From Cyanidioschyzon merolae (taxonomy: Eukaryota), in assembly GCA_000091205.1 (NCBI GenBank), contig AP006501.2: a stretch of DNA of 64,000 bases; one strand, written 5' to 3'. Under the pieces are notes generated by a model. That model did not search any database and was not told where the DNA came from. It saw nothing but the letters and a program-made list of their open reading frames with translations. The position numbers and the translations under genes are program-made. Positions 1 through 55,010 of this stretch are shown here, piece by piece; positions within the stretch are counted from its first letter, which is position 1; every line of letters begins with the position of its first letter.

Positions 1-78
1 GCTGCTGCAGCTGGAGCTGCTGCCGCTACCGGGGCACCAGATACGGACCTTGTGGAACGAACGGATACGGAGACAAGG

Positions 79-1062
79 ATGGCTCTGCTCGATGAATTGC
101 GCCATGCACATGCCGCCGCCGCCGCTGCTACCAGCTCCAGCATGATTCATGGGCATCCCGTGCCCGCGACGGATCGCCGTTCGGTGAAGTACGGGCCGCA
201 CTGGCGATTCGCACCGCTTGCAGCCATTGCCGCGCACGCGCGCAGCCTCGCGACCCCTGGGGTTGTCACGGGAGTCGGCGAAACCGCATGCTCGACGCTT
301 TCGTTACTGAAACTGCTCGCGGAGGATACGAGGCGATTGGTTGACGAGATACTGATCCTAGCTTCTGGTACCGACGAAGCGGAAACAACAGAGCCGGCAA
401 AGCGCCTGCCCGATCGCGATACAACCACAGAGACGCTTGGACGCATTTTGCTTGCGTACGCACAGGCCTTGGTTTCTGTGGCGGAGGCGCAAGCAGGTTC
501 CGGAGAGTCGCAAAACACTGTGATGCATGACCTGGGAAAGACCGCTCTTCAGGCGCTGATCCAGGCTGAACGATCGGGTATTCGAGAACCCCATTTTCGA
601 CATGCACTCCGAACTTTGATCCGAGGCTTCGTACCCGCGACAGCATCAGCGGATTGTGTCGCTGCTATCAGCGCAATACTCGAAGAGCATCTTCCGAGCG
701 GACGCATAGAGCGAGAATCCCACCGCTTAGAGCTACTGTGTCAGGTGGTTACCCTGGGTCCGGATCTGCTTGCCCTAGCATCAGTATTGAGGCGTGCGAG
801 CCGTAACCAGACGTCCCACGTCCTGTCTGCGGTCGCGTGCCCTGACCTGAGGGCTCCTTGTTCTACCAAATGGTACAGGCAGGTCGTCCAGCTCTACGAA
901 ATCGGGGCCAGAACCATCGCGAATCAGCTAACTGGTTGTTGGCCGGCGGAAGACCTGCAGGAACACACCGCTGATTTCCTCGTCAACGGGGCGATGCAGT
1001 TGCCTTTGCTTTGTACAGGAAACCTATCAGAACACGATTCAACTGTTGCGCCTGTGAGATAG
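79..1062 (+). CDS. hypothetical Ala/Leu-rich protein; may be truncated by the window start
   Basis: Track ORF 52..1062 begins at GTG; first in-frame ATG at 79. No recognisable motif. Confidence 0.2.
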   Translation: MALLDELRHAHAAAAAATSSSMIHGHPVPATDRRSVKYGPHWRFAPLAAIAAHARSLATPGVVTGVGETACSTLSLLKLLAEDTRRLVDEILILASGTDEAETTEPAKRLPDRDTTTETLGRILLAYAQALVSVAEAQAGSGESQNTVMHDLGKTALQALIQAERSGIREPHFRHALRTLIRGFVPATASADCVAAISAILEEHLPSGRIERESHRLELLCQVVTLGPDLLALASVLRRASRNQTSHVLSAVACPDLRAPCSTKWYRQVVQLYEIGARTIANQLTGCWPAEDLQEHTADFLVNGAMQLPLLCTGNLSEHDSTVAPVR

Positions 1063-2501
1063 ATTCATACTGCCTGCTGTTTTCGCGAATGGAGGCAGTA
1101 TCGTGGACAAGTTGCCTCGTGTTGGCGCGTTCTGTGGCGGAGCGGACCACGCCACCACCAGGAAATCCATGATGACGCCCTATGGAGACCAACGGAGACG
1201 CCGCATCAACCCTCATGCGCAGACAAGGACGAAAACGATCCGAAGCGAGCGATAGGATGCACTGGTGGCGTCTGCTTGCGCGCCGTCTCCACCGGCCGCA
1301 TCACGTCGCCCGCAACAGAACACCGGTTGCAAGCATGGTTGCGCTTACAAGTCACCAGCGCGGGCCGCGCTGTGCTGTATGCCGCCTGTAGCCTGAGGCC
1401 GCTGCAGCCTCCGGTGCGCAGAACCCGAGCGATTCTCGAGAACTGCCACGTTACGCGGACACCCGTTTCTACTTTTCAGCAGAAGGACACACTCCCGACA
1501 GAACATAGCCTGGTACTTGGCGCCAGGGGCGTTGCAGCGACAGCAGCGCGGCGTCTCGCCTCGCCGTTGTGGTTGCTCGACAAGCAGAAGCGCACAGTCT
1601 GCGCAGATGCGAGCAGGTTCGAATAGCGCGTGCACTGCTTCACAAGTCACGCACTGACCGTCGCAGCGCGCACATAACAAGCCGACTTCACTGCCCTGTG
1701 TGCGGCCGCACTGAGCTCCGGTATGTTTCAGGGACATTTGCGGTGCGCTCGAGCGTCTCGCTTTCGCCTCCTGAGAACGCGACGGCCAACTGCACGCACA
1801 GTTCACAGGTTCAGACTCGTAGTTGTCGTGGGTTTCGTCAACTAAGCACCGCTGCGCCTTTAGACGGTGCCAGCGCGTCTCCAAAGCCGCCTAACGGGGA
1901 ACTCAGGAACCAGTTCGGTGTCAGACTTGGAGCAAAACTTTCAACCAGTGCGCTCGTTCCACACGTTGCAGTACCGTCAAATCAAAAGGTTGAGCACTGG
2001 CTTATCGGGTACGCTGAAAGACTCGGCTAGTCCAAGCGGACGCGTGTCTGCCAACGTAACACTGACTAGAACGCGGCCCTGTTTTGGTACTTGCTCCGGG
2101 GCTCGGTGGACCGCGATGGACCACGCGACGAGCGCGCTCTGGCAGGCAGCTGCACAGCGATGAAGTCAGAGGCCTGGGAACGCGCACAGCGCCGCGGAGT
2201 TAATCCGACGCGCGTCCGGAACGCCACAGCGCACCGTTTATGCCGCAAGTTGCAGAGCGCCTGCGAGCAGGCCGGCCCAATGAGCAGCTCGCCACAAGTC
2301 CATGAACTGAACGGGCGTTCAGCAGGCTCGGAACGTGCACAGCCTCCTGCTGTTGCGGATTCGACGTTAGCAAACGAGTTAGAAATCGACCAAAAGCCGC
2401 TTTACAACGAATGCACCGCATTTTCTGCATTTAGGCCCCGTTTCATGCCGTATATGTATGTCAACGCCAGTGCTTAGTCGCCGCACCGTCTCGGCAGCGT
2501 T

Positions 2502-3761
2502 TCAAGGTGATTCGGGTTCGGGTTCGGATTCGGGTTCCAGTTGCGCAACGATAACGCTCGCATCGTCACCCTTCCCAGGACAAACAAGTCTCGGCATGCG
2601 TTCCGATATGTAAGGATCGCAATTGGTGCAGCTGGAGAAGTTATGTGCGAGTTGTGCCAGTTGATAGCTTAACAACACTGGATCTATGTGGGTAAAGGTG
2701 CCCAAGCAGGTCCGATTCGCCACCGCCAGATTCGAATCATACGCAGAAGAGACCGGACACACCAGCGCGAGAATCTGGCTCTCACTGATATTATCGAAAA
2801 GGCCATCCGTCCCAAATATAACCGTATCGTACGCTCGTAGTCGGAACACGTCGAGGTAAATGGGCACCACATCACCCGTACACGTCTCGATCGTGATGCT
2901 GGTGCGTTGGGTTTCCGGATTCCCCTCGATGCCGTTGAGGCTCGAGAACACAATTGTTTGATCACGAATCACGAGGAACCCGATATTGCCTGTACGCACG
3001 GCATAGAGCAGATTCCCATTGTTTGCGAGACATGCCGCCAGCACCGACACCGAACGCACTGCTTCGGGCGGCCGCATATGCGTCACGGCATCACGGAGAC
3101 AGCTGAGTAGTTCGAAGCGTGGTTGCCAGTTTCGTCCTCGAGCGGTGTCTTGCTCCGATTCAGAAAAAAGCACCTGTTCAATGAACCCGTCTAAGATGTT
3201 GCGCACATGGTACTGCGCCGTGTACATATGCGCCAGTTCTACATCGCGCGTGTCCTTAATCGGTGCGAATGCCGCGCGAACAACACCACGCTCAGTGGCG
3301 TAGAGAACGTGACCGCAGTCCGCAAGGCCCACCGCGCCCTTCCCCTCGCAAACGAAGACCGTGTCCGTCGACCCCGAGAGAAGCAACGCCTCACCAGGAA
3401 ACGTTGTACCTTGTTCCGCACTAGGACGATCGCCGATGATCTGGTACGTTCCACACCGAAAGACGCACCGCTGCTCTGAGACTGCAAGCGGACGCTGCTC
3501 GTTGTGCGGCTCGCTCCGCAACGACAGTTTCGCCACGCCGCACCGCCGCTGTGCCTCGTGTGAGTGCTGACCGCGCAAACACCTCAGTGCAGACGCCGAC
3601 GAGAAGAGGCTTCCGCGATAAACACACGTGTTAATAACGAACTGCAACGGATTATCAGGTTCAACTGGCTGCCGCAACGAGCTTGGGGTTTCTTTGAACA
3701 GAGTGCCGCCTCGTTGCCTGCCGAGCGACCGCATGGCGAAAACGTACCGCCTGCTTGGCAT
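2502..3761 (-). CDS. PPM/PP2C-like protein phosphatase, divergent
   Basis: 419-aa ORF with an ATG start. PP2C-like blocks: LANNGNLLYAVRTGNIGFLVIRD (cf. VANVGDSRAVL), VIFGTDGLFDNISESQI (cf. LILASDGLWDV), C-terminal GKGDDASVIVAQL (cf. SKDNITVIVV). The N-terminal ~120 aa are not obviously PP2C. Confidence 0.4.
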   Translation of the reverse strand: MPSRRYVFAMRSLGRQRGGTLFKETPSSLRQPVEPDNPLQFVINTCVYRGSLFSSASALRCLRGQHSHEAQRRCGVAKLSLRSEPHNEQRPLAVSEQRCVFRCGTYQIIGDRPSAEQGTTFPGEALLLSGSTDTVFVCEGKGAVGLADCGHVLYATERGVVRAAFAPIKDTRDVELAHMYTAQYHVRNILDGFIEQVLFSESEQDTARGRNWQPRFELLSCLRDAVTHMRPPEAVRSVSVLAACLANNGNLLYAVRTGNIGFLVIRDQTIVFSSLNGIEGNPETQRTSITIETCTGDVVPIYLDVFRLRAYDTVIFGTDGLFDNISESQILALVCPVSSAYDSNLAVANRTCLGTFTHIDPVLLSYQLAQLAHNFSSCTNCDPYISERMPRLVCPGKGDDASVIVAQLEPESEPEPESP

Positions 3762-3872
3762 AGACAGTGACCGGAAAGCTGCACCGAAAACGCCGTTGTG
3801 CTCTTCTCGAGCCTGTGTTCCGAGACCTGCACGCCGCCTCCAACAAACGCCGTTCTAAAGAAAAGGCTGCTG

Positions 3873-6145
3873 TCACCAGTGGTACAGCAGTGGCGCGCCA
3901 CGCGCCCCCCAGACAAAACGTCTCGAGCAGATGCGCAGATGCCCTTCAGATTTCTTGAACCGGCCACCCAATACTGCTTCCAACTTCTTTTCATATAGTT
4001 CAACTTTGAGAGGTTGTCCAAGAAAATTTTCTCTTGACAGCTGTGGAGGTCGTTTCTCCAGCAGCGCACATTTCCTTATATTGATTGCGGCGTTAAAGTC
4101 ACGATTCACAAACTCCATATGTTTCTTGCCATTGGTAGTTGGACTCACTAGTGCAAGCAATCCACGAACTTTCGCCCTCCTTTTCATTTGCTCTTCCGTC
4201 AGCGGTCCGTACTTTTTTACATCCTCAGGGCTTCGCTGATATTTTTCCATCTCGACCGTCTGAAGTGTGCACCCCAGTTCATGGTGTGTATAGGACGTTC
4301 GGAACTCATCTGCAGGTATCGTAGCGAAGCTCCGTGCGCACTTCTTGTACGTTCTTGTTGTTGGAGCTGGCGTAGTTCCTTTTTTGGGTCCTCCATCGCC
4401 CTGCTCCGTATGCTACTACGAGCCTTTGACTTTCATCCTCCTTCAAGGCGCTCAACTGACTGAAAAAGTTGGCGACTGCAAGCCGCTTCCCACAATACAG
4501 GTTCATAAGCAGACGGGCCCATCGAGGCTTTGTATACTCCTCCCACAGCGCATCCCAATGAGCAACGCGAACTTCCATAAACTCCCGAAAAGCGTTAGAG
4601 TCCGCTCCTCGGGTCGTCACCTCGCTCAAAGCCTCCAGGTGCTCTTTCATTCCTGAATTCCATGTAATGATTTTCTTCCTTGCATTCATTACGCCGGATC
4701 CTCGGTAGTATCTCGCTCTCGAGAACCTCAACAGACGCATGTCTTTCTGACGTGAGTTGCCGTCAGTACCATCTTCCGCGCGCTTGGGAGCAGCGATGGT
4801 TACGATATTCGTAACCCCAGGGTCCGCGCCAACGACAAAGTCGTTATCCTGCACTTTCTGTGTGGCACAATCTGCCTCCTTCTCATCTTCATGCTTCGTC
4901 ACGGACACTATCGAAGACGGAACTGGACGATCCGCCTTCAAGCGCCGATAGTGAACACACATGGCTACTCCATCGGTTTCGATCACCCCTGTGAATACCT
5001 TTTGTTTGCTCACTTTCAGACTTGTGAAATCGAAGATATTCTTCCAGTACGTGTCCCGGTTTTCACCGGTACTCTCCTTCCTGCTGACATTAAACTCGGG
5101 GCTGAACTCCTTCATGATGCCGTAAAGGATTCTGGAATCGATAGTCACAAAATGTGACTCGATGTTGGACAACGGAACGACGTTGAAGCGCTTACCCAGA
5201 AGCGCAGCCTTTCGTCTCCCCCACTCTTCATTTTTTCCTCACTCAGCTTCATCTCTGCCTTGCGTTCGAGCTCACGGTCCAGAAACACAAAGTAACGCAG
5301 GACGTGGCGGTAGTATCTTTCGTTATCTTTTTTCAACTCTGATATGTTTGCTGCTCGGTTCGCCAACCCCAGTACCGCACGATGCTCTTGTATAGCCGCT
5401 CGGATGACGGAATCCTCATTCATGCTCCTGAGTGATTTCTTCTCGTCGATGAATTCAATCTCATCTTCATGCTTGCGATCGTTCGTGTTGCCATTGATAA
5501 TCGCCCATATCCCCTGGCGAATGAGACCGGGTAGAGTGCAAAGATGGAGCGTATCATGAAGTTCTTGAGGTTCATTGTTAAATGGTTCTTTAGACTGGTG
5601 AGGTAGTTCATCGCTCCGTAGGTGTAAATATTCGAATCCCCCCCTGTATCGAGTACCGTCGAAGCGGAACTCGGCGTAAATTTTGTGGAGGGCATGAACT
5701 CGCTCATTTCACCTAGACGTTTCACCGGTGCCAAGCATCCGGTGATGAAAAACGGTTTTGTTGAGAAAATCTTCCAGAATATGGACTGTTTTGATGTCCG
5801 TAACGTCATGATACCATTTTCTTAGGAAATCCACCATTCCTTGAGAAGCGTCACGAACACCGCTGGAGTTCGGCTCGACACGGTTCCAGATTGCCTCTCG
5901 AACGTTTTCCCTGTACGGATCCTTGGTATGTTGAAGAAGACAGGCTTTCACCGCCATCTCGTCGTACCGTCATCTTTTGCGTAGCCTTTGACGTAGGGCC
6001 TCCCGCTTTTACTTCTTCTTCTTATCCTGTTCCTTTGCACTTGGCACTGTTCTTCATTTTTTCGGGCTGCCGGCGACATTGGCGCCCAGGATCCTCCACT
6101 TCCCCTCCCGTAACTTTCCTTTTTCAATATAAAAAACCGAAACAA
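3873..6145 (-). pseudogene. Fanzor-type TnpB-like RNA-guided endonuclease gene with at least 4 frameshifts
   Basis: The reading frame switches between consecutive ORF segments. One example lies at 4250-4306: a third frame restores ...FRTSYTHHELGCTLQTVEMEKYQR. Catalytic-looking residues are retained. Confidence 0.65.
3876..6116 (-). mobile_element. Fanzor/TnpB-like element, copy A (~2.24 kb, degraded)
   Basis: Colinear ORF segments on the minus strand (5948-6145, 5709-5957, 5420-5809, 5145-5423, 4306-5172, 3873-4250) jointly encode a ~700-aa protein. It carries [12 protein letters not shown] (RuvC-I-like) and EFVNRDFNAAINIRKCA (the classical TnpB/Fanzor RuvC-III motif). Homology to copy B begins at ~6116 and ends just after the stop codon. 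Confidence 0.7.
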
Positions 6146-7199
6146 CTTTGGATGGTACAGCTATTACGCATAAAAAAGCACTTGAATACATTAGTGTGAA
6201 GGTTGAAACACGATTGAGGACAAACAATGGGCTTTTCTACGACTTGAAATCGTTAAAATTTGTACGATAGAGCTACATGCTTCATTTTTCCGATGGAAAA
6301 ACACTTACATTGACAATGGATCCCAGATTGTGCTATAAATGGGTATCGGATTTGGCGAAAGCATCCATCATGCTGCATTCTAACTCCAGATTCCATTACG
6401 TATACTTCCTTTCAGATGTACTACTCGTCTCGTGCTTCCTGTCATTCGCCGGGTGCATGCGTTGATGCACCCGCCTTAGCGTCTAATCCGCTGATGCCGA
6501 TGCATAACAGAGACAGGACAGCGTTGCCGTACTACTGAGGGCGTCGGATCGAGGAATGCTCCACCTGACACAGAGTCGGAGTATAGGATCATTCTGGGAG
6601 CCAGCAAGCTCCGCAGACAGACACACTGCCTGCGATAGCGTGAAGCTATATACCAGGACTCCACCGCGACCAGATCGACGCCCAGATGCAGTTTAACTGC
6701 CGCTAGTACCAGAATAAACAGTGCTGCAGACGAATTGCTCAGATTTCTATGCAGCACCCGCCACTGGGTGGCGAGCACGAAGCACGTGCCTGGGGTACTC
6801 GTCTGGCTCGCGGGTTTTTCCGTCGAGAAATTCAACTTTCGACAAAACGGGAACCGTGTTTCCTTTTTATCGTTTATCGTGCAGGGAAGATAAATTGGTA
6901 TATCGTTGCTAGTTAATGGTTAGTCTCTGTTCTTTGCTCTGTATGCTGCGGTCGGTTAGCGCGCCGGGGAGATCAGGTCGTACGAGACAAGACGCACGTG
7001 TCGCCGTTGAAAGGAAACGCGAAATTGTGAAAATCCGTTTTCTTATTGTTCTACCGTACAAGTTGTATTTGCGTTAAAGTCGTAACAAAGTAAAGTTGTT
7101 TCATGCAATTGTGTTTCAAACCTCAAGTAAGTGTATACAAATGATGTTTGGCAATTCAGATCAGAAGCGTCGAAAGAACCTTCTTCTTCTTCAAAAATA

Positions 7200-9416
7200 A
7201 AAAAGGTTATGGAAAAGAAACTGGAGGATCCTGGACATCTGGTGTCGTCGACTGCCGGAGACTGACGAAAAACATGGCGGAGCTAAAAGGAACATGAGAA
7301 GACGATGGAGCAAAAGAGGAAGGCCCGAGGTCAGAAGCTGAACGAACCACGACAGTACGACAAGATGGTGGTGAAAACCTGTCTTCTCGCACATATCAAG
7401 GATCCGTCCCGGCGAAGGCTGCGAGAGGCCATCAGAAACCGTATCGAGTCATACTCCATGAGTGTTATGATGGCTTCTGCAGGTATAATGCATTTGGTGA
7501 AGGAGATGCGCGACGACGTAACGGGCATCAAAACAGTCGAGGTTCTGGAAGAATTTTTCGGCAAAACCTTTATTCGTCACCTGATGCTTGGTACAGGGGA
7601 AACGTCGAGGAGAAATGAGCGGGTGCATGCCCTCTGCCAAAAATACTCCTTCTACAGCTCCAACGGTACTCGAGACAGGGGTGACTCGCATATTTACACC
7701 GTCGGGTTATGAAGCACCTCACGAACCTGAAGAACTATTTGACCATGAGCCTGGAACGTTTCATGATACGCGCCGTCTGTACGCGCTACCCGGGCCCCTC
7801 TCGCGAAGGGATATGGACCATCATCGACGGCATCACAAACGATAGTAAGAATGAGCAGGAGATCGAATTTGTTCACGGGAAGACATCACGCAGGAGAGCA
7901 AATGAGGATTCTGGAATCCGTGCAGCTATTAAAGAGCATCGTGTGGTCTTGGGGCTGGCGAGTCCAGCAGAAAAGATATCCGAGTTGAAAAAAGATTCGG
8001 AAAGATACGATCGCCTCATCTTGCGCTATACCATATTCCTGAACCGACAACTGAAATGCAAGACCGATATGGAGCAGGGTGTTGAAGCAAATGCAGTGTC
8101 GGAGAAACGGAAAGCTGCGCTTCTGGAGAAGCGCGTCAACGTCGTTCCGTTGTGCAACATCAAGTCACATTTTGTGAGTATCGACTCCGAAATCCCTTAC
8201 GGCATCATTACGGAGATCTGTCCAGTGTTCGATGTAAGCAACAAGCAGTTCACCGATGAAAACCAGGAGACGTACTGGAAGAAGAATATCTTCGATTCCA
8301 AACGTCTCAGAACGAGCAAGAAAAAGGAATTCACTGGGATGATCGAAAGTGATGCGATAGCCATGCGTGTACATTATCGGCGCTTGAAGGCGGATCGTCC
8401 AGTTCTGTCTTCGTTGCCGTCGCTGGCAAAGCGTGAAGAAAACAAAGAGGCTAGCCCAACGACGCAGGAGGTGCATGAGAACCACTTTGTCGTTGGCGCG
8501 GGCCCTGGGAACACGAATATCAGGACCATCACAACACGCAATTGCGGGGATGATGGCATCGACGACAACCTACGTCAAAAAACACATGCGTGTTTTAAAG
8601 CTTTCAAGAACGAGATATTACCGAGAATTCGGTGTGATGAATGCAAAGAAGAAAAGTGGGGCGTGGAACGCAGGATTGAAAGAGCACCTGGAAGCGATCA
8701 GCCAGGTGACGGGCCGGGGAGCGGACTTTCACGCTTTTCGGGAGTTTATGGAAGTTCGTGTTGCTCATTGCGAGGCGCTGTAGGAGGAGTATACAAAGCC
8801 CCGGTGGGCTCGGTTGCGTATGAATCTACACGGTGGGAGCCAGCGTGCGTTCGCGAGTTTTTTCAATGAATTGAACGTCTTGAAGGAGAGCGACAGTCAG
8901 AGGCTCGTACTAGCGTATGGAGCAGGGCGATGGAAGACCCGAAAAGGGTGTACACGAGCTCCAACTACAAGAACGCACAAGGAGTGTGCAAGGCGTTTCG
9001 TTACGATACCTGTAGATGAGTTACGAACGTCGTATACACACCATGAACTGGGTTGTACGCATCATAGAGTGGAGATGGAAAAGTACCAGTGAAGCCCTGA
9101 GGATGTAAAAAAGTACGGAGCGTTGACGGAGGAACAAATGGAAAGCAGGGCGAAAGCTCGTGGACTACTCGCATTACTGTGTACAAACAAAGATGGCAAG
9201 AAACGTATGGAGTTTGTGAATCGTGACTTTAACGCCGCTATCAATATAAGGAGATGTGCGGTGGTGGAAAGAAGACCTCCAGAGTGGACACGATAGAACT
9301 TTGTTGCGCAATCATTCAAACTGGAACTGTATGAGAAAAAGTTGGAGGCAGTAGTAGGTGGCCTGTCCAAAAAGGCTGGGAGGCGTCTGCACGTCAGCCG
9401 AAGACGATTTATCTAG
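7200..9416 (+). mobile_element. Fanzor/TnpB-like element, copy B (~2.2 kb, degraded), inverted relative to copy A
   Basis: ORF segments 7305-7712, 7709-8869, 8433-8783, 8814-9092 and a 9095-9416 frame are colinear with copy A at ~55-65% aa identity. RuvC-I reads [10 protein letters not shown] (D to G). The C-terminus reads MEFVNRDFNAAINIRRCAVV with in-frame stops (MEKYQ*, ...EWTR*). Confidence 0.7.
7305..9416 (+). pseudogene. Fanzor-type TnpB-like endonuclease gene, inactivated (frameshifts, stops, RuvC-I D to G)
   Basis: As above; the aligned sequence contains stop codons. Confidence 0.65.
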
Positions 9417-10217
9417 CGCGGGTTTCTCGCCACTACTGTACACGGCCGCCGGCGACGTTCGTCTTTTAGGGCGTTCCTTGTGTCGGCGATACCACGGACC
9501 AGCAGCAGGCGACCGCGCCCATCGCCCGAAAGAAGCAACCGGTTTCGCGAGCTGGACGCAGTACGGCGCTCTGCCCTGTGCGCCTTTTGTGGCTTTCAGG
9601 TACGCGGTCTACCGCTCCGGACACTGCTCCAACAGTCTGGCCGGTCCTTGATTACGACAAGTAGCGCTGAAAGCAAGCCTTTCGTGCACGGAAACTGAAC
9701 GCGAGTCGGAGCACTGTTCGTCACACAAGTGCTGGGTTATCCGTTCTCGTCCCTATCATAGACGTGTGTGTGTGGGCGTGCGGGTGGCTCCGCTTTGCTC
9801 CTCGAGATTTTCCCTTCCGTGAAACGGGGACGTGTCTGCAGGATTATGTGACGTACGCGAGTTTGATCGGAAGACAGTTACTGTCAGGAAAGCGCTGGCT
9901 GGAGCTGCCCGCAAGACGACTGGTCGCAGGAGGTGTTTTCGTGGTAAGCGTCACCCTCGCCGGCATCACGCTTTACCACGGGTGGTATTCCAACACACAA
10001 AGCATTCAAGACGATCATGTCCGGAATGGCTCTGTGGAGACGTGCGACTGCGCCCCGCTATGGAGATGCATGCAAGCGTTCGGTAGCGAGCACGCACCAG
10101 AGTGCGCAGCGGAACGAAGCAGCCTCCTGCGCTGCATGGCGCACAGCAAGCCTTCTACATCATAAACATGAAGGGGCACCATTGGCGGCCTTTATGTGAC
10201 TGTGCAAAGAAGTGACA

Positions 10218-10853
10218 TCATGAAACTTGCTCATGGAGAATTTGGTCAACCATCCAGTACAAACGCGGACGGCGTGGTGCACGTGGAGCGCCTGGCAACG
10301 CTCGGCGGCTGAGGCAAAACCTGAAAACGGCAACGTCGTCCACGCTCGAGAGAACCTGGATACGGCAGTGGTAGAGGTATGGGGTGACTCGCATTGAGCT
10401 AAGCACGCATCGACTCTTGTGACGGAGCAGCGCGGAATACGGCCTCGCCATCATGATGCGCTTAAAGCGTTCAAACTGACCCAAATCAATGCGCTTTCCG
10501 AAGAACTCATTCTTGATCGACCAGACGTCAAAGTTCGCAAAGGCATACAACGCTTCAATACCCTCATCACACTCCTGCGCGGTGGTGAGTGCCTGTCGAC
10601 GCGAGAGACCTTCCAGTAAGTGCTCCACAGTTTGTTCAGCGGAAAGCTGTGCATAAAGCGCAACGGTATCACGCCAGCGAAGCGAGTCGCCCCCGGCCGG
10701 TCGAGGTGCACACGCGTCGAGCTTGGCGGGACCTGCACCCCGGCGCGCGTTTGCGAGGCGAAGCCGTTCACAGCGCGTTACCCGCACTGCTTTGGCTGGG
10801 TAACGCAAATAATTCAGACCCAAAGAAGGACTAGAAGCAAGTGATACCAGCAT
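10218..10853 (-). CDS. hypothetical protein
   Basis: 211-aa ORF with an ATG start; no recognisable motif. Confidence 0.2.
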   Translation of the reverse strand: MLVSLASSPSLGLNYLRYPAKAVRVTRCERLRLANARRGAGPAKLDACAPRPAGGDSLRWRDTVALYAQLSAEQTVEHLLEGLSRRQALTTAQECDEGIEALYAFANFDVWSIKNEFFGKRIDLGQFERFKRIMMARPYSALLRHKSRCVLSSMRVTPYLYHCRIQVLSSVDDVAVFRFCLSRRALPGAPRAPRRPRLYWMVDQILHEQVS

Positions 10854-11431
10854 TGATGGCGGTTCACGCCTCCAACAGGCACCCTTTTGGAGTCGACCTC
10901 AGTGCAGCAGCGTAGCGGTACCTGGGGGGGAGAATTCGCTGCACCCCACACAGGATTCCGTTGCGCGAGCTGTGCACGCACTTTGGCGAGCATTCGCGCT
11001 ACCTCGATGGCCAGCGCGCGCAACCGAAAGCGCAGCAGCGCCTCTGGCACGAATGGCGCCACCAAACTGCCTTCCGCAGCTTGCATGGTGGATGGTGTCG
11101 GATTGTCCAGGTTATGCGCTTATGCTAATGTGCGCGACGCGCATCGGCATCAAGGGTACCTTCTGGGCGCAAGGTCCAGCGAATCGGATACGCATACGGG
11201 GCCAGTGCGCTTTCTGCGCCTACCCACTGTGGTGGGTGTCAAGCACAAACCCGCATTGCCAACCGACAACAGCGCATTCCATGCATGATCACGAAGGAGA
11301 GCGGCGGCTCCCAGCATTCATCCTAACAGCCAAGTTTCTCCAGCGTGTCGTTCAGCAAAGGCAAGCCTGCATCCGCAGACTGTCCGAGCACATACCGACG
11401 ACGAGACCCGATTCTACGTCGGGTGAAGCAC

Positions 11432-11750
11432 GCCTCAAGCCGACGCCCTCTCGGGTATAGAAAAGCTGTTCTAGCTCTATGAACTATCTGCTCTAGCATT
11501 TAAGGTCCAAAGGCGGATACGGAACGGCAGGCACTAGGCACACCCGATGGGACGTATGAAACGGCCGGAATATCCGAGAAGAGGTATCGGTAATGTAACT
11601 TGGAGGTTCGGGGGTTTGATGGACACCTTACCGCCCACTGAAAAAAACCACAAAAAAAGTAAGAAACAAATGCGCTTAATCGGAGAACGCTGGCCGAAGT
11701 AAACGTGTTGTCAGTGAAAAAAATCCGAACGTGCTGCTGTGGTGGCATAT
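11432..11750 (+). repeat. dispersed ~320-bp repeat R1, copy 1
   Basis: Colinear with 18490-18808 at ~80% identity, from agccgacgccct...ctagctctatgaactatctgct through an A-rich tract to gctgctgtggtgg. Followed by an AT-rich 50-bp patch. Confidence 0.7.
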
Positions 11751-15204: not shown

Positions 15205-16019
15205 GGCCCTGCACTGACCCAGCATCCGGACGCAAATAACCAGTGCCGAGAGGTGTACTCGTCGTTGCTGCGACTCCTGAACTTTTCCAGACGATCTAGC
15301 ATATCGCGGATGACACTGAATGCAGGCGAGAAGCTTCCCGTGATCAAGTCTAGAATTCGCAAAACCTTTTCATTGCAAGCAGCAACATGTCATAATGTTG
15401 CACGAGTATAACCATCGGTTTTCGTATTGCAGCGCACGAGGGACGACGACCCGTCCGCCCAGGAGGCTTGCGGGCACGCTGCTGCGATCGCTGGCTCGCT
15501 CCTGGTGCTCAACGCGAGCGCCCCGGATTCTCCATATGTGTGGGATCACGAGCGTACCCAGTCGCTCGTTTCCTGGATGAAACGTGTGTGCACGAAGCCG
15601 CGCTCTCTGTGGTCGAATTCGCTACCTTAACCGTTGGCAGCGAAACCACCAGCTCGATACGTGTACTGAACTCACCGGTGTCGTGATGAAAACGCATTTT
15701 ACGAGTTTTCGAGGGTTTGTGCAAGCTCGCACACCCTCGACAGCAAATGCTCGTTACCGATCATGCTTCGGATCACAACATGGATACGTTCAGCGTGCTT
15801 CTACGCTAGATGCCGCCTTTCTTCATCTGGATCGCCGCTTACACATGCGGGATATTCGGCCAAGGACGCCCGCATCGCGAACCCTGATCGCTCCAACTTG
15901 GTATCATGTATGTTCAATAGAGCGAAAACGTTTCGCAACCATGTAGGTTCAATGAATACCCAGGCGCAGACGCCTCCCAGCCTGTTTTGACCAGCGGCCT
16001 GCTATCGGTTTTGATTTAC

Positions 16020-16215
16020 CCAGGTGCACCTGTAGTCTGGGAGGCTGCCCACAAAGTTGGATCGCGTCAGTTCTGCGGATCTGGCCTTCAGCACCGCACA
16101 TCGTCTGATATTGATGGTGGCGTTGAGGTCTCGGTTCTTGATCTCCTTGCGTGCAGTGCCACTGGTTGAACGCACGATTGCAAGAAGTTTTAGAACTCGT
16201 GCTCGCTGTGCCACT
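16020..16215 (-). mobile_element. solitary internal fragment of a Fanzor/TnpB-like gene (RuvC-III region)
   Basis: The minus-strand ORF encodes ...RARVLKLLAIVRSTSGTARKEIKNRDLNATINIRRCAVLKARSAELTRSNFVGSLP. This matches RAKVRGLLALVSPTTNGKKHMEFVNRDFNAAINIRKCALLEKRPPQLSRENFLGQPL from copy A. It is more diverged than the other copies. Confidence 0.55.
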
Positions 16216-16861
16216 AGAGGCTCGCCTATCCAACACCTCTTCTTCTGCTTCTTCGTCGTCGTCGCTTGTGCTTCTTCTTCGCTCGATCGTCAGCAAGAAG
16301 AGGATTTTTCGGCAGCGGACGATAACGGCCCTTCAGGATCCCCGACTTTCACGCCCATAACTTTCCCTTGCACTCCTTATTTCTTCAAATGAACACACCT
16401 TGAATGCATCAGCGCTAACCAGCGAGACAGCCTTTGATGAAACGCATCTAGGGATTGGAAAACAATTCAGGAGCATGTCAAGGACACGACGATGCGGGAA
16501 TCGCGCAGGCATCGATCGGGCGACGCAGGCGGGTGCACACGCTCCAGTTCACACTGAAACGTAGGAGCAGGCGGTTGAAAGGCCCTCGCGTGGGCAACAA
16601 CGTGCTCTGCGTTGCTTCGGTGGCGTTCATAGCAAGCTGTTCAGGTACGGGGTTTGTGAGGTCTGGCTTGGCCCAGGTGTGAGCAAGCTCTGCTCATAAA
16701 CGTTATCTGTAGTCGGTACGAAGACGATGTTCTTGAACGCAGGCTGTGTGCCACGTCGTAGTGGGCCTGGGTCTCAGGCACGCCCCGTACGAGGTCTCGG
16801 ACGTGAACGCAAGCTGCGCTGGAGCGCCCGGTTCGCGAGGCGACGAGTGGCGTTTCTTGAC

Positions 16862-17122: not shown

Positions 17123-18489
17123 CTTGTCGCTCTGTAGACCAGGACTCAGAAAAGGATCAAGGCCCCTGGGCGTTTAGATATGCGTCTGCCCAGCATCCAA
17201 GAACAGACTTGATCGGTGAGCAACAAATGCTCGGCGATACTGCGGAGATATTCTGTGCTCCTGTCGCTTGGTGCGCACCGCTCTAGGCCGCCTGAGCGTT
17301 GCAGCGTCCAGATTGTCTGGGGCGCGCGTCAGGCACTGCTGGAAGACCCGTACCAATGCCCTGCGAGCTGGTAGGCTGACACCATCCCTGCTACAAGAAT
17401 GATGATATCAAGCATGATGCGTACCCAGCGTTTCTCTCGCTCAGACGCTAGCATGAAATATGGCTGAAACGTAGAACAAGCATGCGAATATCTCCGCGAG
17501 ATTTGCGTAAAGGAAAACGCTATGCGCTCTGACGAACCAGAATGGCACTCGAGCTGAGCATTCCCTGACGCCGTGACGGACGGTGCTCGGTGGACCAGTT
17601 CGGTACGCGATCAATGGGCAGGCAAGTCACCCATCTGGTGGTGATGTCCTTGCGTTGCGGGGTGGTCGCAGCTGCCCAAAGTGCAAAATCCACTCTGACC
17701 TGGTTTGGACTTGCTCGGAAAGGCGCTCCCACAGAGCACATGCTGTTTTGTTCTCGAGTTGCAGCAAACACCGGCGTGCTCCTGTAATTTGAGGGCAAAC
17801 GCTCCGTTGTCAGCAGTTGCCGCGCTAGCGTCACGCGGTTGCGAACGAAGGCTGGTTTCCAGTCAGGCCGATCCCGAGGCTGCCTCGCAAACTTGGTACC
17901 ACGACGAGTACGCACGATCTGAACATTCAGGCGCATTCTGGATTTCGAACCTGTCCAAGTCGGTGGTGCAGAGCAGACTACACGGACGCGCACCCACAAT
18001 GAGGCCGGCTGCCGGGAGCTCAGTCTCTCTGCTTCCGCAAATGCAGCCGCGCTGCCCTCGCCTCCCGGAGCGCCTCGCTGCCCTGTGGAACAGAGCCATG
18101 TACGCACCGGCGACGTTTCTTACGCCAAAACTTTCCGAATTGTTGACGACTATGCACAAAGTGCGCCACTGCACCCGCCACGCGGCGGCGACACGGGCAC
18201 GTCAGCCACAAAGAACCCGTAGCGTGCTTCGCCTGGATGCCTGCCGCCGGTACCTGGATATCAAGGCCTCGTCGATACCGCGCCAAGCGTTAGCGGTGCG
18301 CTTAGCACGCATCGATTCGTTCAATGGATACAGATCCAGATCCGTAATACAGTACCCAGCATGGTACATATCCTAGCGCTGGAGGAGGCGCTCACGTCTC
18401 AAGTTGTCGCGCGCCCGCTCATCATATTCAGGCAAAGCGGCCTGTAACGGCGCTGTGATCGCAAAATGCGCATACAGGAATCGCTACCC

Positions 18490-18808
18490 TCGAGCCGACG
18501 CCCTTTGTGCGGTACAGCAACGCAGCGCTAGCTCTATGAACTATCTGCTCCAGCGGTTCAGGCGCAAAGGCGGATACGGAACAGCAGGCACTAGGCACAC
18601 ACGAGAGGACGTGAGAAACGACCAGAATATCTGAGAAGAAGTATAGGTAATGTAACTCGGAGGTAGGGAATTCGGTGGATACTTCACCGCGCACTGAAAA
18701 AAAAACAGAAAAAGAAAAGAAAGGAAAAAGCGCGTAATCAGAGAACGCTGGCCTAAGTAAACGTTCTGTCAATGAAGAAAAATCGAAATCGCTGCTTGCC
18801 GGTGGGCG
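18490..18808 (+). repeat. dispersed ~320-bp repeat R1, copy 2
   Basis: See copy 1 (11432-11750). Confidence 0.7.
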
Positions 18809-20004: not shown

Positions 20005-22506
20005 ACTCATTGAGAAAGATACGTAAACGGCGCGTGCGCTCCACGCCAGACCGAGGCGTAGCAGCGAATCATCCGTACATGGCCCCCGATGGGACACGCT
20101 ATTTGTGGCAGCGGTCCGCGAGAAGAAAGCGATACCGTCGCGCTCGTACTTGCTGCTTTTATGCGTATATGAGTGGATGACGCAACCCAGGCGATCGAAA
20201 CGTCTACAGCCCGGGCGCGAAAAATGAAGCAGACTGAGGGTAACGGCCGTTTGCGGATCAATCGCAAATGCACCCTGGAGGCGCACCCTGCTGACGTCGT
20301 ACGATCACGTTGCCGGTCCAGAAAAGTGGGAATTCACGCGAGGCATTCCTGATGTGTCGACAGAGGCAAATGACAGGCTGGTGGCGGTGGAGGAGCTCGA
20401 AACGCTTCCGACTTTGGACGGGACATCGTCGCCAGCGCACGAGTCGCGTAGCTGCGTCCGAGTTCATCGTTTGGCGCTCGGCCTCGGGCTGACGGATATC
20501 GTATCGTAAGGCTGGTTTACGCATCATGTCTGTCTTCGTTGCATCTTGCGCTCCTACGTGTTCCTCAACGGACCCGTATAGAGCAAAGCAGACGACGCCC
20601 TGTCCGAATACTAACGCCTCGCCGCCACATGCGTTTCTTCTACGCGTCTCCCATATGTCACATCAAGGGTAATGATGGCATCGTAGACACGTTTGACCTG
20701 CATGGAGTCACCAGGGATCGACGGCCGGCCTCTCCGAGCAAGAAACAAGCATTCGACCGGCGTCGCGAAGCGCATGGACGGTGCTTATCCCAGGTCTCTC
20801 GTTCACAGATACAATGCGGAGCGAATGAAAATCCATATACAGGCATTTCGTGAAATCTCGACCCGAGTCGAGCAACGAGACTCATTCTCAGCCGCTCACC
20901 GTAGATGAAGAGATGGACCTGGAGATGCCGGGCTGAAGAACCTCATTGCCGTCGATGCAACGCTGCGTCAAGGAGACACAGCTAGAGACCTGAACGGAAA
21001 ACAGATGAAACGAGGCAACGTTACCGGGGCTCGTCATAATCCGTAGTCGGGCATGGCAGATGCCGGGACGCATACCAACAAATGGGATGAGGTCGTCGAG
21101 ACCGGTCTCGACACTCTCGACATCGTACTGAATAGTGGCACATGGCTTGTGCGCTTCATGTAGAGAGACTATCAATGTGTAAATCGCTCATGCGGACGAG
21201 GTTTTTGGCAGGACAACACGAGACCGCGCCAGAACACCAGCGATTTCAGTTGTTCAAGGGCGAGAAGCTCGCATTCGCCTACTTGTTCAATGCCTTGGAA
21301 AAGCAAGTAACTGACAAGTCGCGTTGTTAGGTAGTGACCCACGGCGCCGAGCACGCTGTAGCGCGCAAGGGCTGCTTTCGCGCTACCTCGTCCATAGCCT
21401 GCAACGAGCACGGGGATCGATTCGAAACGATTCCCATGGATGCGTCCAGGACGGCATCCATGAATCATGAGCAGGAGCGCACGCTGCAACAAATAGAGAA
21501 GAAGAGCGCCAAACAGAGACGGTTGCAAGAGGTGATGTAGAATACGCGGACCGGACCTCAAATGGCGAGACAATCGTAAGCGAGAGGCTTGCTATGGAAT
21601 GACTCCAGAGCTGGCAAGCATGCGCGCAAACGTGCTTCGCACTCAGCCTTGAACGCGTCAATGAACATCCAAAAACATGTCGTGCTTGCAGAGCGCCCAG
21701 CGGCTCTGTGTCGAGGCAAGTCTCTGACGGAATCGTTCAGTACCCAGTTTGGGCATCGTGCAGAAACGTTGCGATCTGGCGATGAGCGAAAATCACTGGT
21801 CACGAGAGACGGGATTGGATCCTCGCCTGGAGCAAGGCATTGGCATGGTCGGGTTCCGCTCTGTCACGAACCGCTGGAGCACCGTCTTCACACAACGGGA
21901 ACGATTTTGCGGGGTTACCGGTCGACGAAAATTCGTGCCCCATGGTTATCGATAACCGATTCCAGCACACTTGTTCTTCACGCCGTATCAGAAAAGAGGC
22001 GCGTCTCATATGCAATGCTCGTCATATCGACGCATTCCACGACGGGGTCCAGGGCCTGGGCGGGTCCCCGCTGAGCCTCGGCGACGACGACGTCGCGCGC
22101 ACTGTGCGCAACGGCACGAAGGCGGTTGTGCGGCACGCCTCAGAAATACAGCGCGTACGGCACTTTTGCCGTTTCGCATACATATCCACGCATCAGAGAC
22201 GCGGTCCTTACCGAGTACCTGGGCAGACTCGCGTCCTGCACACGACGCCAGCACAGAGTCACGTCGACGGATCGCAGCCGATGAGAGCAGTTGCAGAGGA
22301 TGCCTCCGAGGACCCGTGAGCGATTCCTCCACAGCAGCCGCCACAGCAGCCGCCACCACGGCCACTTCCATGTACGATGGTTCCGCGAACGATACCGGGA
22401 ACTGGCCCCCATCGGGCCGTGTTACGCGTCAAATACAACGCGGAGATTCTCTCGACAGCGTCTACCGACAGCAGAAGAAGCAACGCGCATCCGCGTTTCA
22501 TCGACG

Positions 22507-29598: not shown

Positions 29599-29749
29599 TC
29601 CCTGGTCGTTATCCACGAAGCGTTCGCTCGAATGACGCACCCGGTGAATGCGAAGACAACCCTGAAAACAAACCCCTTTCAAAAGAAAAACGTTGCTGCC
29701 AACGGTGTACGGTAGTGGCGACCAGCGCCTAAGCCTTGACGTCTCCAAC

Positions 29750-30200
29750 TGACGTGTAGACGCCTCGCCGTCTTTCTGGACCGGCCGCCTACAACTGGTT
29801 TCAATTGTTTCTCATATAGTTCCACTTTGAGAGGGTGTCCCACAAAGTTCACTCTTGTCCACTTTGGAGGCTTTTTCTCCATCATCGCACATCTCCCTAC
29901 ATTGATTGCTGCGTGAGAGTCTCGGTTCGCAAATTCCATACGTTTCTTGCCATCACTGGTAGTACTTACTAGTGCAAGCAAACCACGCACTTTCGCTCTC
30001 CTTTCCATTTGATCTTCCGTCAGCGCTCCGTACTTTTTTATATCCTCAGGGCTCCGCTGGCACTTTTCCATCTCCACTCTCTAAAGAGTACACCCCAGTT
30101 CATGGTGTGTATAGGACGTTCGGAAAGCATCTACAGGTATCGTGACGAAACGCCGTGCACACTCCTTGTGCGTTCTTGTCGTTGGAGCTGGTGTACACTC
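29750..30200 (-). mobile_element. 5'-truncated Fanzor/TnpB-like 3' fragment (zinc-finger region + RuvC-III + 3' end)
   Basis: Minus-strand frames give ECTPAPTTRTHKECARRFVTIPVDAFRTSYTHHELGCTL then MEMEKCQRSPEDIKKYGALTEDQMERRAKVRGLLALVSTTSDGKKRMEFANRDSHAAINV...RRLHVSWRR. These are colinear with the copy A/B C-termini. Confidence 0.7.
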
Positions 30201-30552
30201 CAGAGGGTGGAGATGGAGAAATGCCAGCGGAGCCCTGGGGATATAAAAAAGTACGGAGCGCTGACGGAAGGTCAAATGGAAAGGAGGGCGAAATTTCGTG
30301 GATTGCTTGCATTAGTAAGTACAACCAGTGATAGCAAGAAACGTATGGAGTTTGTGAACCGAGAACTTAACGCGGCAATCAAGGTAGGGAGTTGTGCGGT
30401 GATGGAGAAAAGACCTCCAGCGTTGACCAGAGAGGATTGTATGGGGCAACCTCTCAAAGTGGAACTATTTGAGAAAAAAATGAAACCAGTAGTAGCTTGG
30501 CGGCCCAGAGAGGCTGGGAGCCGTCTGCACCTCAGCTGGAGACGATTTGTCC
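30185..30552 (+). mobile_element. 5'-truncated Fanzor/TnpB-like 3' fragment, inverted partner of 29750-30200
   Basis: The plus strand encodes VEMEKCQRSPGDIKKYGALTEGQMERRAKFRGLLALVSTTSDSKKRMEFVNRELNAAIKV...SRLHLSWRRF, ~80% aa identity to its minus-strand partner. The junction lies at ~30184, where homology switches strand. Confidence 0.7.
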
Positions 30553-30642
30553 AAGGCGCGTTCGCCGCCACGACTACACACCGCTGGCGGCAGCGGTTCT
30601 CTTTTGAAAGGCGTTATCGGACTAGCCTCTGATTCATCAAGG

Positions 30643-53114: not shown

Positions 53115-54309
53115 ATGGATTCGGGACCAAGCAGTTAAATGGCACAACTTGCCTAGCGAGGCGTCCAGCGTTTCGTGCCAGAGACGGTGTAGGCGGTGCT
53201 CGTGCTCGTTACCTGCAATCACAGGTTTCGGATCAAGTGCAAGCGGTGGACGCTGGACCAGCGAGGCGTGGCGTTTACGTCATTTCCATGTGCCGACGCT
53301 GCGTGATACGAAAAAAACAACAGCATCGCCAGATGGTGCGCGTTTTTGGCGCGAGATAAGGCTCTTCCCCGGAACGCAAATCCTATTTCTCACAGGGCAT
53401 CTCCGCAGCTGGTGCCGATTCGAAGAGACCTTCATCCGCCAGCAGCCAAGGGTGCCGAATCGCGACTCCAAAACCCCCTGCTGGGTATTAAGTCGTCGGC
53501 GCCTCGCTGGACGCCTCATGTGCGCATCCGTTTCAGACTGCCTCCCGATGCCGAGCACGTGTCAGCGCGCATGCCACACGGAGCTGGCTTGCCTCTATCG
53601 GAACCAAGAAGTCGACTGCGACGGTCGCATACGGTCGAGGTGCATCTGGCAATCTTCTCGTTGGCGCATTGCCCGAGAAGCGGCTGAGAAGCACCGCCAC
53701 GAACGTCAACGAGGTCTTCCACTTGATTCTGGTTCTCGTTGCAGTGCGCGCATGCCACTATGGAGACAAGAGAACCGGCCCTTGCTTCCAGAGGGAATCC
53801 GCATAAGGTTTGCTGCTTTGGTGCAGCGTCATCTCAAACGCTCACGAATACGCTTTCTCAACGGGGTAATCGGGGATGAGGATCCTAGATACCGCCTGAT
53901 CTCCGGGCCGAGGTTCGCATACCTCGAGCGATTCCTGGAGCTGCCGCTCTGCTTGTAGGCACAGTGCGAGGCAAGCTGCTGCCATGATAAACGTAATCCC
54001 GATAGGTAGTGCCGCCGGATATGACCCTAAACGAAGTGTGTGTCTTTGTGGGTGCGCGGAGATTGGGCTACTCGTTTGTTGAAGCGGATGCGTGTCAACC
54101 AGCATGGATGCAGTTCCATCGGTGTGAGCTGGAGTGTGCAAAACACCGCATAGCCATTCCGTATCCATACAGCAGTAGCAGCAGCAGCAGCAGCAGCAAT
54201 CGTCAGTGAAAGAAAAAACTGTTTTTACGAACACGGACGGTAAATGAATATCAATATATGGACGCCTCCTAGCCGTTTTCGACCGGCCCCCTGTTATCGG
54301 TTCCAGTGT

Positions 54310-54480
54310 ATCCGCTGTACACCACGAGCCTGAGAGGTTGTGCGATAAAGTTAGATCACGTCAGCTCTGCGGCTCTCGTCTCCAGCACAGCATACTGCCT
54401 GATACTGGTAACAGCGTTGAATTCTCGGTTCACGAGCTCCTTGGGTTTATTGCCTCTGGTTGAACACATCCGTGCATGGA
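54310..54480 (-). mobile_element. solitary diverged fragment of a Fanzor/TnpB-like gene (RuvC-III region)
   Basis: Minus strand encodes ...RGNKPKELVNREFNAVTSIRQYAVLETRAAELT*SNFIAQPLRLVV, colinear with GKKHMEFVNRDFNAAINIRKCALLEKRPPQLSRENFLGQPLKVEL. The listed plus-strand ORF 54306-54512 is its antisense frame. Confidence 0.5.
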
Positions 54481-55010
54481 TCACTAGATCTCGTACCCTC
54501 TGTGCCACTTAAGTCTAGCCTACTTCCCTCTTCTTCTTCATATCACTCGCTCTTCTTCGCTCGATAGTTGGAGCGAAGCGAATTTTTGTCGTTGTTTTCC
54601 GGCACCCGGCGAGGAAGGCACTCCAGGAGCCCCGACGCTCACGTTCATACCTCTGTATTTTTATTTCGTTACATGAACGCACTTTGAACACACCTGCTCG
54701 ATACCACGAAAAAGCACATTCTTCCACGCACCTGAGGCTCAATCATAATCGGAATGAAAGATGCTATGCAGCGCTCATATCCCGCTTTACGTATGAAACG
54801 TTGCCCGTCGTAACGCGGGCTGTACGATGAGGGCGCTCGACGCGGGGCACACGCGTCAGGCGCGTGCAGCACCATCGTGAACAGTTAGGGTTTGGCTGTT
54901 TTCGCTGACGTACCATACGAGAACGTTTGGGATCAGAGGCTTGACTTGGCCTAGACTTTGGCTTGAGATCCGCACGCGTTGCGGAGCACCATTACAATAG
55001 TTACGTCGTT

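Follow-up and report, generated by a model that had tools for sequence, protein, structure and literature searches.

The closest described relative of the DNA considered here is CMe-1A, the one family of Fanzor1 elements, which encode eukaryotic TnpB-like nucleases, that Bao and Jurka reported for the red alga Cyanidioschyzon merolae in 2013 (Mobile DNA 4:12; PMC3627910). According to these authors, CMe-1A comprises about 150 copies, each approximately 80% identical to a consensus of 3,169 bp that encodes a single-exon protein of 734 aa, CMe-1, and some copies keep an intact open reading frame (ORF). No terminal inverted repeats (TIRs) were found, target-site duplications (TSDs) were not determined, and the class of transposable element (TE) was not settled; the first 635 bp are 95% identical to a separate repeat, TE-N2_CMe, of about 70 copies (PMC3627910). 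Here, we describe two elements, copies A and B, that lie head-to-head in a stretch of 64,000 nucleotides of C. merolae 10D chromosome 19 (contig AP006501.2 of assembly GCA_000091205.1), hereafter the window. Both are copies of CMe-1A, as is shown at the DNA, protein, and fold levels. It is highly probable that they are two independently derived, long-dead copies joined at their 5′ sides: copy B is full-length, with a TE-N2_CMe-like module, a 734-codon Fanzor1 gene, and a structured 3′ tail of about 60 nt, and copy A lacks the first 734 bp.

The consensus DNA (supplementary file 2) and the consensus protein of CMe-1A were taken from the supplementary files of PMC3627910 and aligned to the window. 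Copy B (6291–9475, + strand) is 82.8% identical to the consensus by blastn over 3,186 columns; the interval 6291–9467 corresponds to consensus positions 1–3161, and the terminal hairpin extends to about 9475. Copy A (3848–6281, − strand) corresponds to consensus positions 735–3169, with 84.2% identity over 2,445 columns. In tblastn, the CMe-1 protein aligns to B over residues 1–734 and to A over residues 10–734, which places the Fanzor1 coding remnants at 7209–9416 (+; ATG at 7209, TAG at 9414–9416) in B and, with the help of the lesions scored relative to the consensus coding sequence (CDS), at 3909–6111 (−) in A. The 5′ non-coding module equivalent to TE-N2_CMe (consensus 1–635) is present in B, at 6291–6934 (+), and absent from A; no convincing ORF was found in this module of the consensus. 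The truncated 5′ end of A and the intact 5′ end of B are 9 bp apart (6282–6290), the junction reading ...gctacatgc ttcatttttc and then cgatggaaaaac... in the consensus and junction alignments. Thus, organism, family, and layout are identical to those of the published element, and an identity of 83–84% fits the ~80% of the 2013 paper. An earlier note on this DNA, made from the letters alone, had put the family forward as one that would be worth cataloguing; in fact, both the literature and Repbase have listed it since 2013, as CMe-1A/CMe-1.

When the two copies are oriented and aligned to each other by blastn, there is a single match, between 3882–6117 (−) and 7203–9441 (+), with 76.4% nucleotide identity over 2,248 columns, 21 gaps, and E = 0. 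This bears out the claim of two related elements of about 2.2 kb facing each other 5′-to-5′, and the protein identity of 56–69%, measured by segment, is close to the ~55–65% given there. The ORF listing contains two sets of broken frames with matching translations, at 3.9–6.0 kb (−) and 7.3–9.4 kb (+), and the three-frame view of the alignment reveals one protein common to both copies, with jumps of frame at single-base indels and interruptions by stops. The limits that the note had drawn need revision at both ends. Its shared 5′ boundary is merely the place, ~10 bp before the start codon, where similarity between A and B becomes detectable. Homology also reaches further than a few codons past RLH(V/I)S.RRF: it continues for ~60 nt beyond the stop codon, to 3848 in A and to ~9467–9475 in B.

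Each copy is nearer to the consensus (84.2% for A, 82.8% for B) than to the other (76.4%). In addition, the differences between A and the consensus are skewed to the third codon position (0.138, 0.090, and 0.204 for positions 1, 2, and 3), and those between B and the consensus are flat (0.164, 0.125, and 0.168). Given this closeness to the consensus and this contrast between codon positions, two copies from different source lineages, which decayed after insertion, fit the data better than a local inverted duplication. The statement that these are two family members and not a recent inverted duplication therefore holds. A palindrome formed by recent local duplication of one inserted element would account for copies that are adjacent and inverted, but its arms should not be less alike than each is to the consensus. 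Moreover, the sets of frameshifts and stops are wholly different between the arms, the 5′ extents are unequal (consensus 735 versus consensus 1), and the flanks outside the two 3′ ends are unrelated, so that we regard such a palindrome as extremely improbable.

Relative to the consensus CDS (906–3110), copy A carries six frameshifting single-base indels and four in-register stops; its start codon has changed from ATG to ACG (6111–6109) and its stop codon to TGG (3911–3909). Copy B carries two frameshifts, five in-register stops, and a replacement of the RuvC-I aspartate by glycine. Neither copy has an open reading frame for the full protein. The same locus was recovered in an environmental metagenomic contig, L071, which is 98.4% identical and has in common five of the six frameshifts of A, one of the two of B, and most of the stops; these lesions are therefore real and older than the split between the strains. 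Both window copies are pseudogenes that do nothing today, and thus they are no candidates for working nucleases.

The family as a whole presents another picture. Among about 80 copies recovered from hot-spring metagenomes, the third codon position is less conserved than the first two, and the family has therefore diversified under protein-level selection, as already argued by Bao and Jurka (PMC3627910). This conservation, together with the intact ORFs of some published copies (PMC3627910), is what could be invoked in favor of A and B being working or domesticated Fanzor genes whose apparent frameshifts would be assembly errors, introns, or programmed frameshifts. Assembly error is at odds with the recurrence of most lesions in the independent assembly L071, and introns with the nature of the lesions, which are single-base indels and point stops scattered over conserved domains and do not resemble intron-like insertions. 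With the RuvC-I aspartate lost in B, the start codon lost in A, and near-full ORFs in only 2–3 of ~45 distinct copies from the metagenomic loci, we give functional genes at this locus hardly any credence and keep to the view that both copies are dead.

What was the protein that these remnants once encoded? A profile built from nine family members was searched against 177,635 distinct sequences of the PDB, and the sole match was the Fanzor1 of Spizellomyces punctatus, SpuFz1 (8gkh; E = 2.3e-4). This match extends from the WED/RuvC-I region to the DE[FY]xTS motif, pairing vvgaDPgntni with VVVIDPNKRDI and vDEfRTS with LDEYKTS, and the RuvC-I aspartate column aligns with the IDP of SpuFz1. The same profile is matched at E ≤ 0.001 by 3,092 cluster representatives, most of them of 600–700 aa. 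An AlphaFold2 model was made from a 103-sequence alignment for P0001, a metagenomic homologue of 752 aa that is 62% identical to the repaired copy A; its mean predicted local distance difference test score (pLDDT) is 83.7 and its predicted template modelling (TM) score is 0.82. In a Foldseek search of the PDB, the best seven matches of this model are all Fanzor1 structures (SpuFz, PpFz, and GtFz; E from 1.5e-15 to 2.1e-13), with target-normalised TM scores of up to 0.73, and Cas12 variants and the TnpB of ISDra2 come next, with E above 0.009. The model matches the overall fold of the solved Fanzor1 proteins, with REC, WED, and split RuvC.

The catalytic columns were counted in 102 aligned family members that cover the segment. 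The aspartate of RuvC-I, in the DPG motif, is D in all 102; copy A reads GADPG, with the aspartate intact, in its RuvC-I block at 4807–4836 (−), and copy B reads GAGPG at 8489–8518 (+), so that the VVGADPG-type block which the note had ascribed to both copies survives in A and has lost its catalytic aspartate to glycine in B. The canonical RuvC-II position, in AYGAG, is G in 102 of 102, and the motif is read as VVAYGAGRW in A (4393–4419, −) and as VLAYGAGRW in B (8907–8933, +). Thirty-three residues downstream of the canonical position, an alternative glutamate (VDEFRTS) is E in 102 of 102. In copy A, it is found within IPADEFRTSYTHHELGC (4269–4319, −), where a degenerate zinc knuckle, with H-H...C in place of CxxC, comes after DE[FY]xTS, and in copy B, the glutamate and the degenerate knuckle are found within IPVDELRTSYTHHELGC (9006–9056, +). 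Finally, the RuvC-III aspartate is D in 100 of 102; both window copies retain NRDFNAAINI, as had been noticed at the outset, within NRDFNAAINIRKCA in A (4065–4106, −) and NRDFNAAINIRRCA in B (9219–9260, +). A substitution at the canonical RuvC-II glutamate accompanied by an alternative glutamate is a hallmark of Fanzors according to Jiang et al. 2023, and the rearranged site with DPG and the alternative glutamate is given as the Fanzor signature by Yoon et al. 2023, and likewise by Jiang et al. 2023. The RuvC-like motifs thus do align to the catalytic positions, and the profile match in the PDB, the predicted fold, and these columns together support the assignment of the elements to the Fanzor1 type, as the earlier note had proposed.

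At the DNA level, the similarity of the copies extends into a 3′ non-coding tail, at 3848–3908 (−) in A and 9417–9475 (+) in B. The tail contains a hairpin that spans the stop codon, a variable GGCG../..CGCC hairpin, a strongly conserved core, CGCCACTACTGTACAC, and a stem-loop at the terminus that extends to the final bases, ...GGCGTT. In A, there is a post-stop hairpin, the conserved core reads CACTGCTGTAC, and the terminal stem-loop ends in ...GAACGGCGTT; in B, the core is conserved and the terminal stem-loop has in part decayed. Compared with dinucleotide shuffles, the last 32 nt show better folding, with a mean z of −1.14 and 44% of the copies below −1.5; only 0–7% of the control segments from coding and flanking sequence fall below z = −1.5 (Mann–Whitney p = 4e-6, a value that is optimistic because the copies are phylogenetically related and not independent). 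For the minimum free energy of the last 80 nt, the mean z is only −0.72. Two variants of the terminal stem-loop look compensatory at first sight, but their registers, which differ between subfamilies, are shifted by 3 nt, and a reading as covariation was rejected. We consider the 3′ tail to be compatible with the omega-RNA that would be expected of a Fanzor element, which is no proof of it.

Several observations weigh against this reading of the elements as Fanzor1 nucleases with an omega-RNA at the 3′ end. The protein that was modelled is the metagenomic homologue P0001, not the window sequence itself. The C4 zinc ribbon (CxxC...CxxC, between RuvC-II and RuvC-III) is found in 0 of the 102 members, CMe-1 having TSYTHHELGC...C, and a C4 finger was listed as strictly conserved in Fanzor and TnpB proteins by Bao and Jurka (PMC3627910); their own CMe-1 does not conform to this motif. 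The Pfam scan of nine ORF pieces, the repaired copy A, and homologues gave nothing above threshold. On the RNA side, the Rfam search of positions 3500–9800 returned no match at E ≤ 1, RNAalifold on the 3′ 130 nt of 31 aligned 3′ ends gave no consensus structure, and toward the 3′ end, conservation at third codon positions is not out of the ordinary. A column-wise helix search in the same alignment of 31 ends produced a large number of GC-rich candidates that overlap one another, with no clean covariation.

Since Yoon et al. 2023 state that “many” Fanzors, not all, have a zinc finger, the missing ribbon is better taken as variation at the level of a clade than as failed membership. The RuvC is indeed split, as had been predicted, and what is absent is the C4 zinc ribbon that was expected to split it. 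As an observation in its own right, the ribbon-less clade is large: it includes the published CMe-1 and more than 3,000 cluster representatives, and it retains the D/G/alternative E/D signature. In the Pfam scan, the best sub-threshold model was PF07282, Cas12f1-like_TNB (also OrfB_Zn_ribbon), at the RuvC-III motif, with E = 0.23 and 12.1 bits for P0001 and E = 0.028 and 15.0 bits for another homologue, P0049, against a cut-off of 26.3; no OrfB_IS605 match was returned for the proteins scanned. Because the profile-to-PDB and the fold searches are positive, the Pfam blank was not taken as a refutation, and a profile test of this kind, which had been suggested as a check, would on its own have led wrongly to the rejection of the Fanzor idea.

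Comparison with related systems helps to place CMe-1. SpuFz1 (PDB 8gkh and 9ceu–9cez), shown by experiment to be an omega-RNA-guided DNA endonuclease, shares the fold of the P0001 model (Foldseek E ~2e-15, TM 0.71–0.73 over ~770 columns), as well as the DPG motif and the arrangement with the alternative glutamate. However, sequence identity is only 14–15%, and the CMe-1 clade is without the CxxC...CxxC ribbon. The prokaryotic TnpB proteins of the IS200/IS605 and IS607 elements, such as ISDra2 TnpB (PDB 8h1j), resemble CMe-1 in the split RuvC with RDxNAAxNI, in being carried within a mobile element, and in the non-coding RNA expected from the 3′ end of that element. The fold match to ISDra2 TnpB is weak (E = 0.047, 277 columns), and CMe-1 is unlike TnpB in that it is about twice as long, has DPG in place of D-hydrophobic-G and glycine at the position of the canonical glutamate, lacks both a zinc ribbon and a TnpA partner, and remains below the Pfam thresholds. 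The Fanzor1 elements of Chlamydomonas and Volvox (CRe-1 to CRe-3, in Helitron2, and VCa-1 and VCa-2) are likewise algal, high-copy elements without a classical transposase. VCa-1 and VCa-2 share, by eye, a block ...YG.AKFA...VPT.RA.KEC...V.EFR... with P0049 and P0050, two distant relatives. The CRe proteins, in contrast to CMe-1, retain the CxxC zinc ribbon and reside in recognisable Helitron2 elements, while CMe-1A is without Helitron termini or an assigned superfamily.

By analogy with SpuFz1, GtFz1, and KnFNuc, an intact CMe-1 would form a complex with an omega-RNA that its own element yields by transcription of the 3′ end. In this RNA, the scaffold would extend over the last part of the ORF and the 3′ tail, and the guide would derive from the sequence immediately outside the right end of the element. 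Again by analogy, CMe-1 would cut guide-matching DNA beside a short target-adjacent motif (TAM), the split RuvC site being formed by the D of DPG, the alternative E of DEFRTS, and the D of NRD. Such cleavage presumably serves the retention or the spread of the element.

How CMe-1A itself moves is a separate matter, as the element lacks TIRs, defined TSDs, and a transposase of its own. The absence of TIRs (PMC3627910) invites the proposal that CMe-1A is not a DNA transposon at all and that it multiplies by way of an RNA or single-strand intermediate primed at the structured 3′ end, either as a non-autonomous element dependent on a long interspersed nuclear element (LINE) or in a rolling-circle-like manner. 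This would explain the 5′-truncated copies and the head-to-head joins, and it is in accord with the many 3′-terminal fragments, all of which end at about consensus 3169 with varied starts (2594, 2645, 2737, 2739, 2840, 3073, and 3086), with the better-than-shuffled folding of the terminal 32 nt, and with microhomology at one inverted join. Deletion, though, can equally yield truncated fragments, and the different registers of the terminal hairpins between subfamilies mean that there is no true covariation. Furthermore, neither the window nor the CMe-1A family has yielded a reverse transcriptase or a Rep/helicase as a partner, the element ends in neither poly(A) nor a simple repeat, and the termini are not of the Helitron TC...CTRR type. 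On balance, we think copying from a primed 3′ end improbable.

A side observation concerns the ends of the element. The flanks of ~17–40 distinct copies (loci L011–L081 and the window) are non-random just outside the published consensus, with GATTTTTT(C) before position 1 and TT(T)GTTGGTG(C/T)GTG after position 3169 in about half of the copies. This points either to a consensus that is ~10–15 nt short at each end or to site-selective insertion.

The head-to-head arrangement is the sole part of these observations that goes beyond the 2013 description; neither the join nor its recurrence at a second locus is in that paper. An identical junction (...gctacatgcttcatttttc and then cgatggaaaaac...) occurs in L071, which is the same locus, and in L058/L059, the metagenome contigs Ga0123519_10028648 and JGI24721J26819_10011170. 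The latter were considered as orthologues of the window locus, a possibility that was ruled out by the mismatch of the outer flank: beyond the A-like 3′ end, their flank differs from that of the window and carries a ~45%-identical paralogue of the gene at 45.2–46.3 kb. Identity of L058/L059 to the window is 94% at the junction and declines to ~80% near the 3′ end of A, a pattern suggestive of a duplicated composite that later underwent gene conversion or mosaic divergence. An independent head-to-head join is present in L074, where an inverted copy broken at about c660–683 meets position 4 of a full-length copy.

The window holds a second head-to-head pair, formed by two 5′-truncated 3′ fragments of CMe-1A at 29675–30195 (−) and 30185–30613 (+). 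These correspond to consensus 2645–3167 (86%) and 2739–3169 (85%), respectively, and are 82% identical to each other. At their join lies a microhomology of 7 bp, GAGCTGG; the limits of the inverted structure coincide exactly with the two element termini, the outer flanks are unrelated, and the whole is a foldback-like unit of 0.94 kb. No target-site duplications were recognisable around this pair or around the A/B pair, and the missing 5′ part of A, which a nested insertion would place beyond the 3′ end of B, had no match in 9468–11400.

Head-to-head joins of this kind could possibly arise from an insertion preference for the family's own 5′ region, from the formation of dimers at the time of copying, or from a composite that spreads as a unit. 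It is tempting to propose that the A/B pair is the product of one event, an inverted (fold-back) dimer that arose at integration or before it, repeated elsewhere and possibly mobile as a composite, in which the structured Fanzor 3′ ends serve as long terminal inverted repeats. The genome of C. merolae is roughly 16.5 Mb in size, and with ~150 copies in it, chance abutment should be rare; the recurrence of the window junction at the non-syntenic L058/L059 locus, the independent join of like type in L074, and the miniature version with two 3′ ends at 29675–30613 all point in the same direction. Yet the different codon-position patterns of substitution in A and B suggest different source lineages, the arms are unequal, B being complete and A truncated, and no recognisable target-site duplication brackets the pair. 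Moreover, most family copies in the 80 metagenomic loci are solitary, and the L058/L059 copy, given its fall in identity from 94% to ~80%, could reflect segmental duplication or gene conversion. We therefore hold the origin of the pair in a single event to be unlikely, if less so than copying from a primed 3′ end, and prefer two copies derived independently. If a propagating composite did exist, it would be the first handle on the movement of the TIR-less CMe-1A and on whether or not its zinc-ribbon-less Fanzor is involved.

The significance of the pair as such is small: the family was catalogued in 2013, the activity of Fanzor1 proteins has been established on other members since 2023, and both copies are dead, ordinary members of the family in a model alga whose genome is fully sequenced. 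Nevertheless, the case shows that a Fanzor missed by Pfam can be recognized correctly from motifs in the raw sequence, and a large clade with the full Fanzor catalytic signature and without a zinc ribbon is now on record. The recurrent head-to-head join and the 3′-terminal hairpin could help to classify the CMe-1A element.

With respect to its surroundings, the pair is located between CMS015C and the next genes, and its GC content, 0.48–0.49, compares with ~0.57 in the neighbouring sequence. Five ORFs of the window are exact full-length matches of C. merolae 10D proteins (BAM82668, 82670, 82674, 82678, and 82679), CMS015C and CMS028C among them, and the large ORFs of the window encode ordinary eukaryotic domains (Vps52, prolyl-tRNA synthetase, SSRP1/POB3, Sec1, and CBS-PALP). 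A tRNA scan of the window found none.

Other traces of the family are scattered in the window and in the metagenomic loci. Solo TE-N2_CMe-like fragments (consensus ~84–282, 74–77% identity) lie at 11407–11607 (−) and 18488–18667 (−), and similar fragments are found, in either orientation, upstream of Fanzor ORFs in the metagenomic loci. At 15966–16197 together with 16305–16425 (−), and at 54261–54468 together with 54585–54759 (−), there are old, internally deleted derivatives of ~70% identity. Both share one layout, in which approximately consensus 800–960 is joined to approximately 2850–3084, and positions 382–632 of L066 look alike; these derivatives may represent a separate short, non-autonomous subfamily. 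In many metagenomic copies (L001–L004 and numerous other loci), a segment of ~75–80 bp just upstream of RuvC-I, consensus 2117–2196, is repeated two to four times in tandem; it corresponds to the unstructured, low-pLDDT stretch of the P0001 model (residues 379–469), and each window copy has a single unit. Finally, the interval 20456–21765 (+) is what is left, after heavy decay, of a second, divergent Fanzor1 lineage, and none of its ORFs exceeds 160 aa. Its protein is 31% identical to CMe-1 and 33–35% identical to the homologue P0117, and PMC3627910 lists only one Fanzor family for C. merolae.

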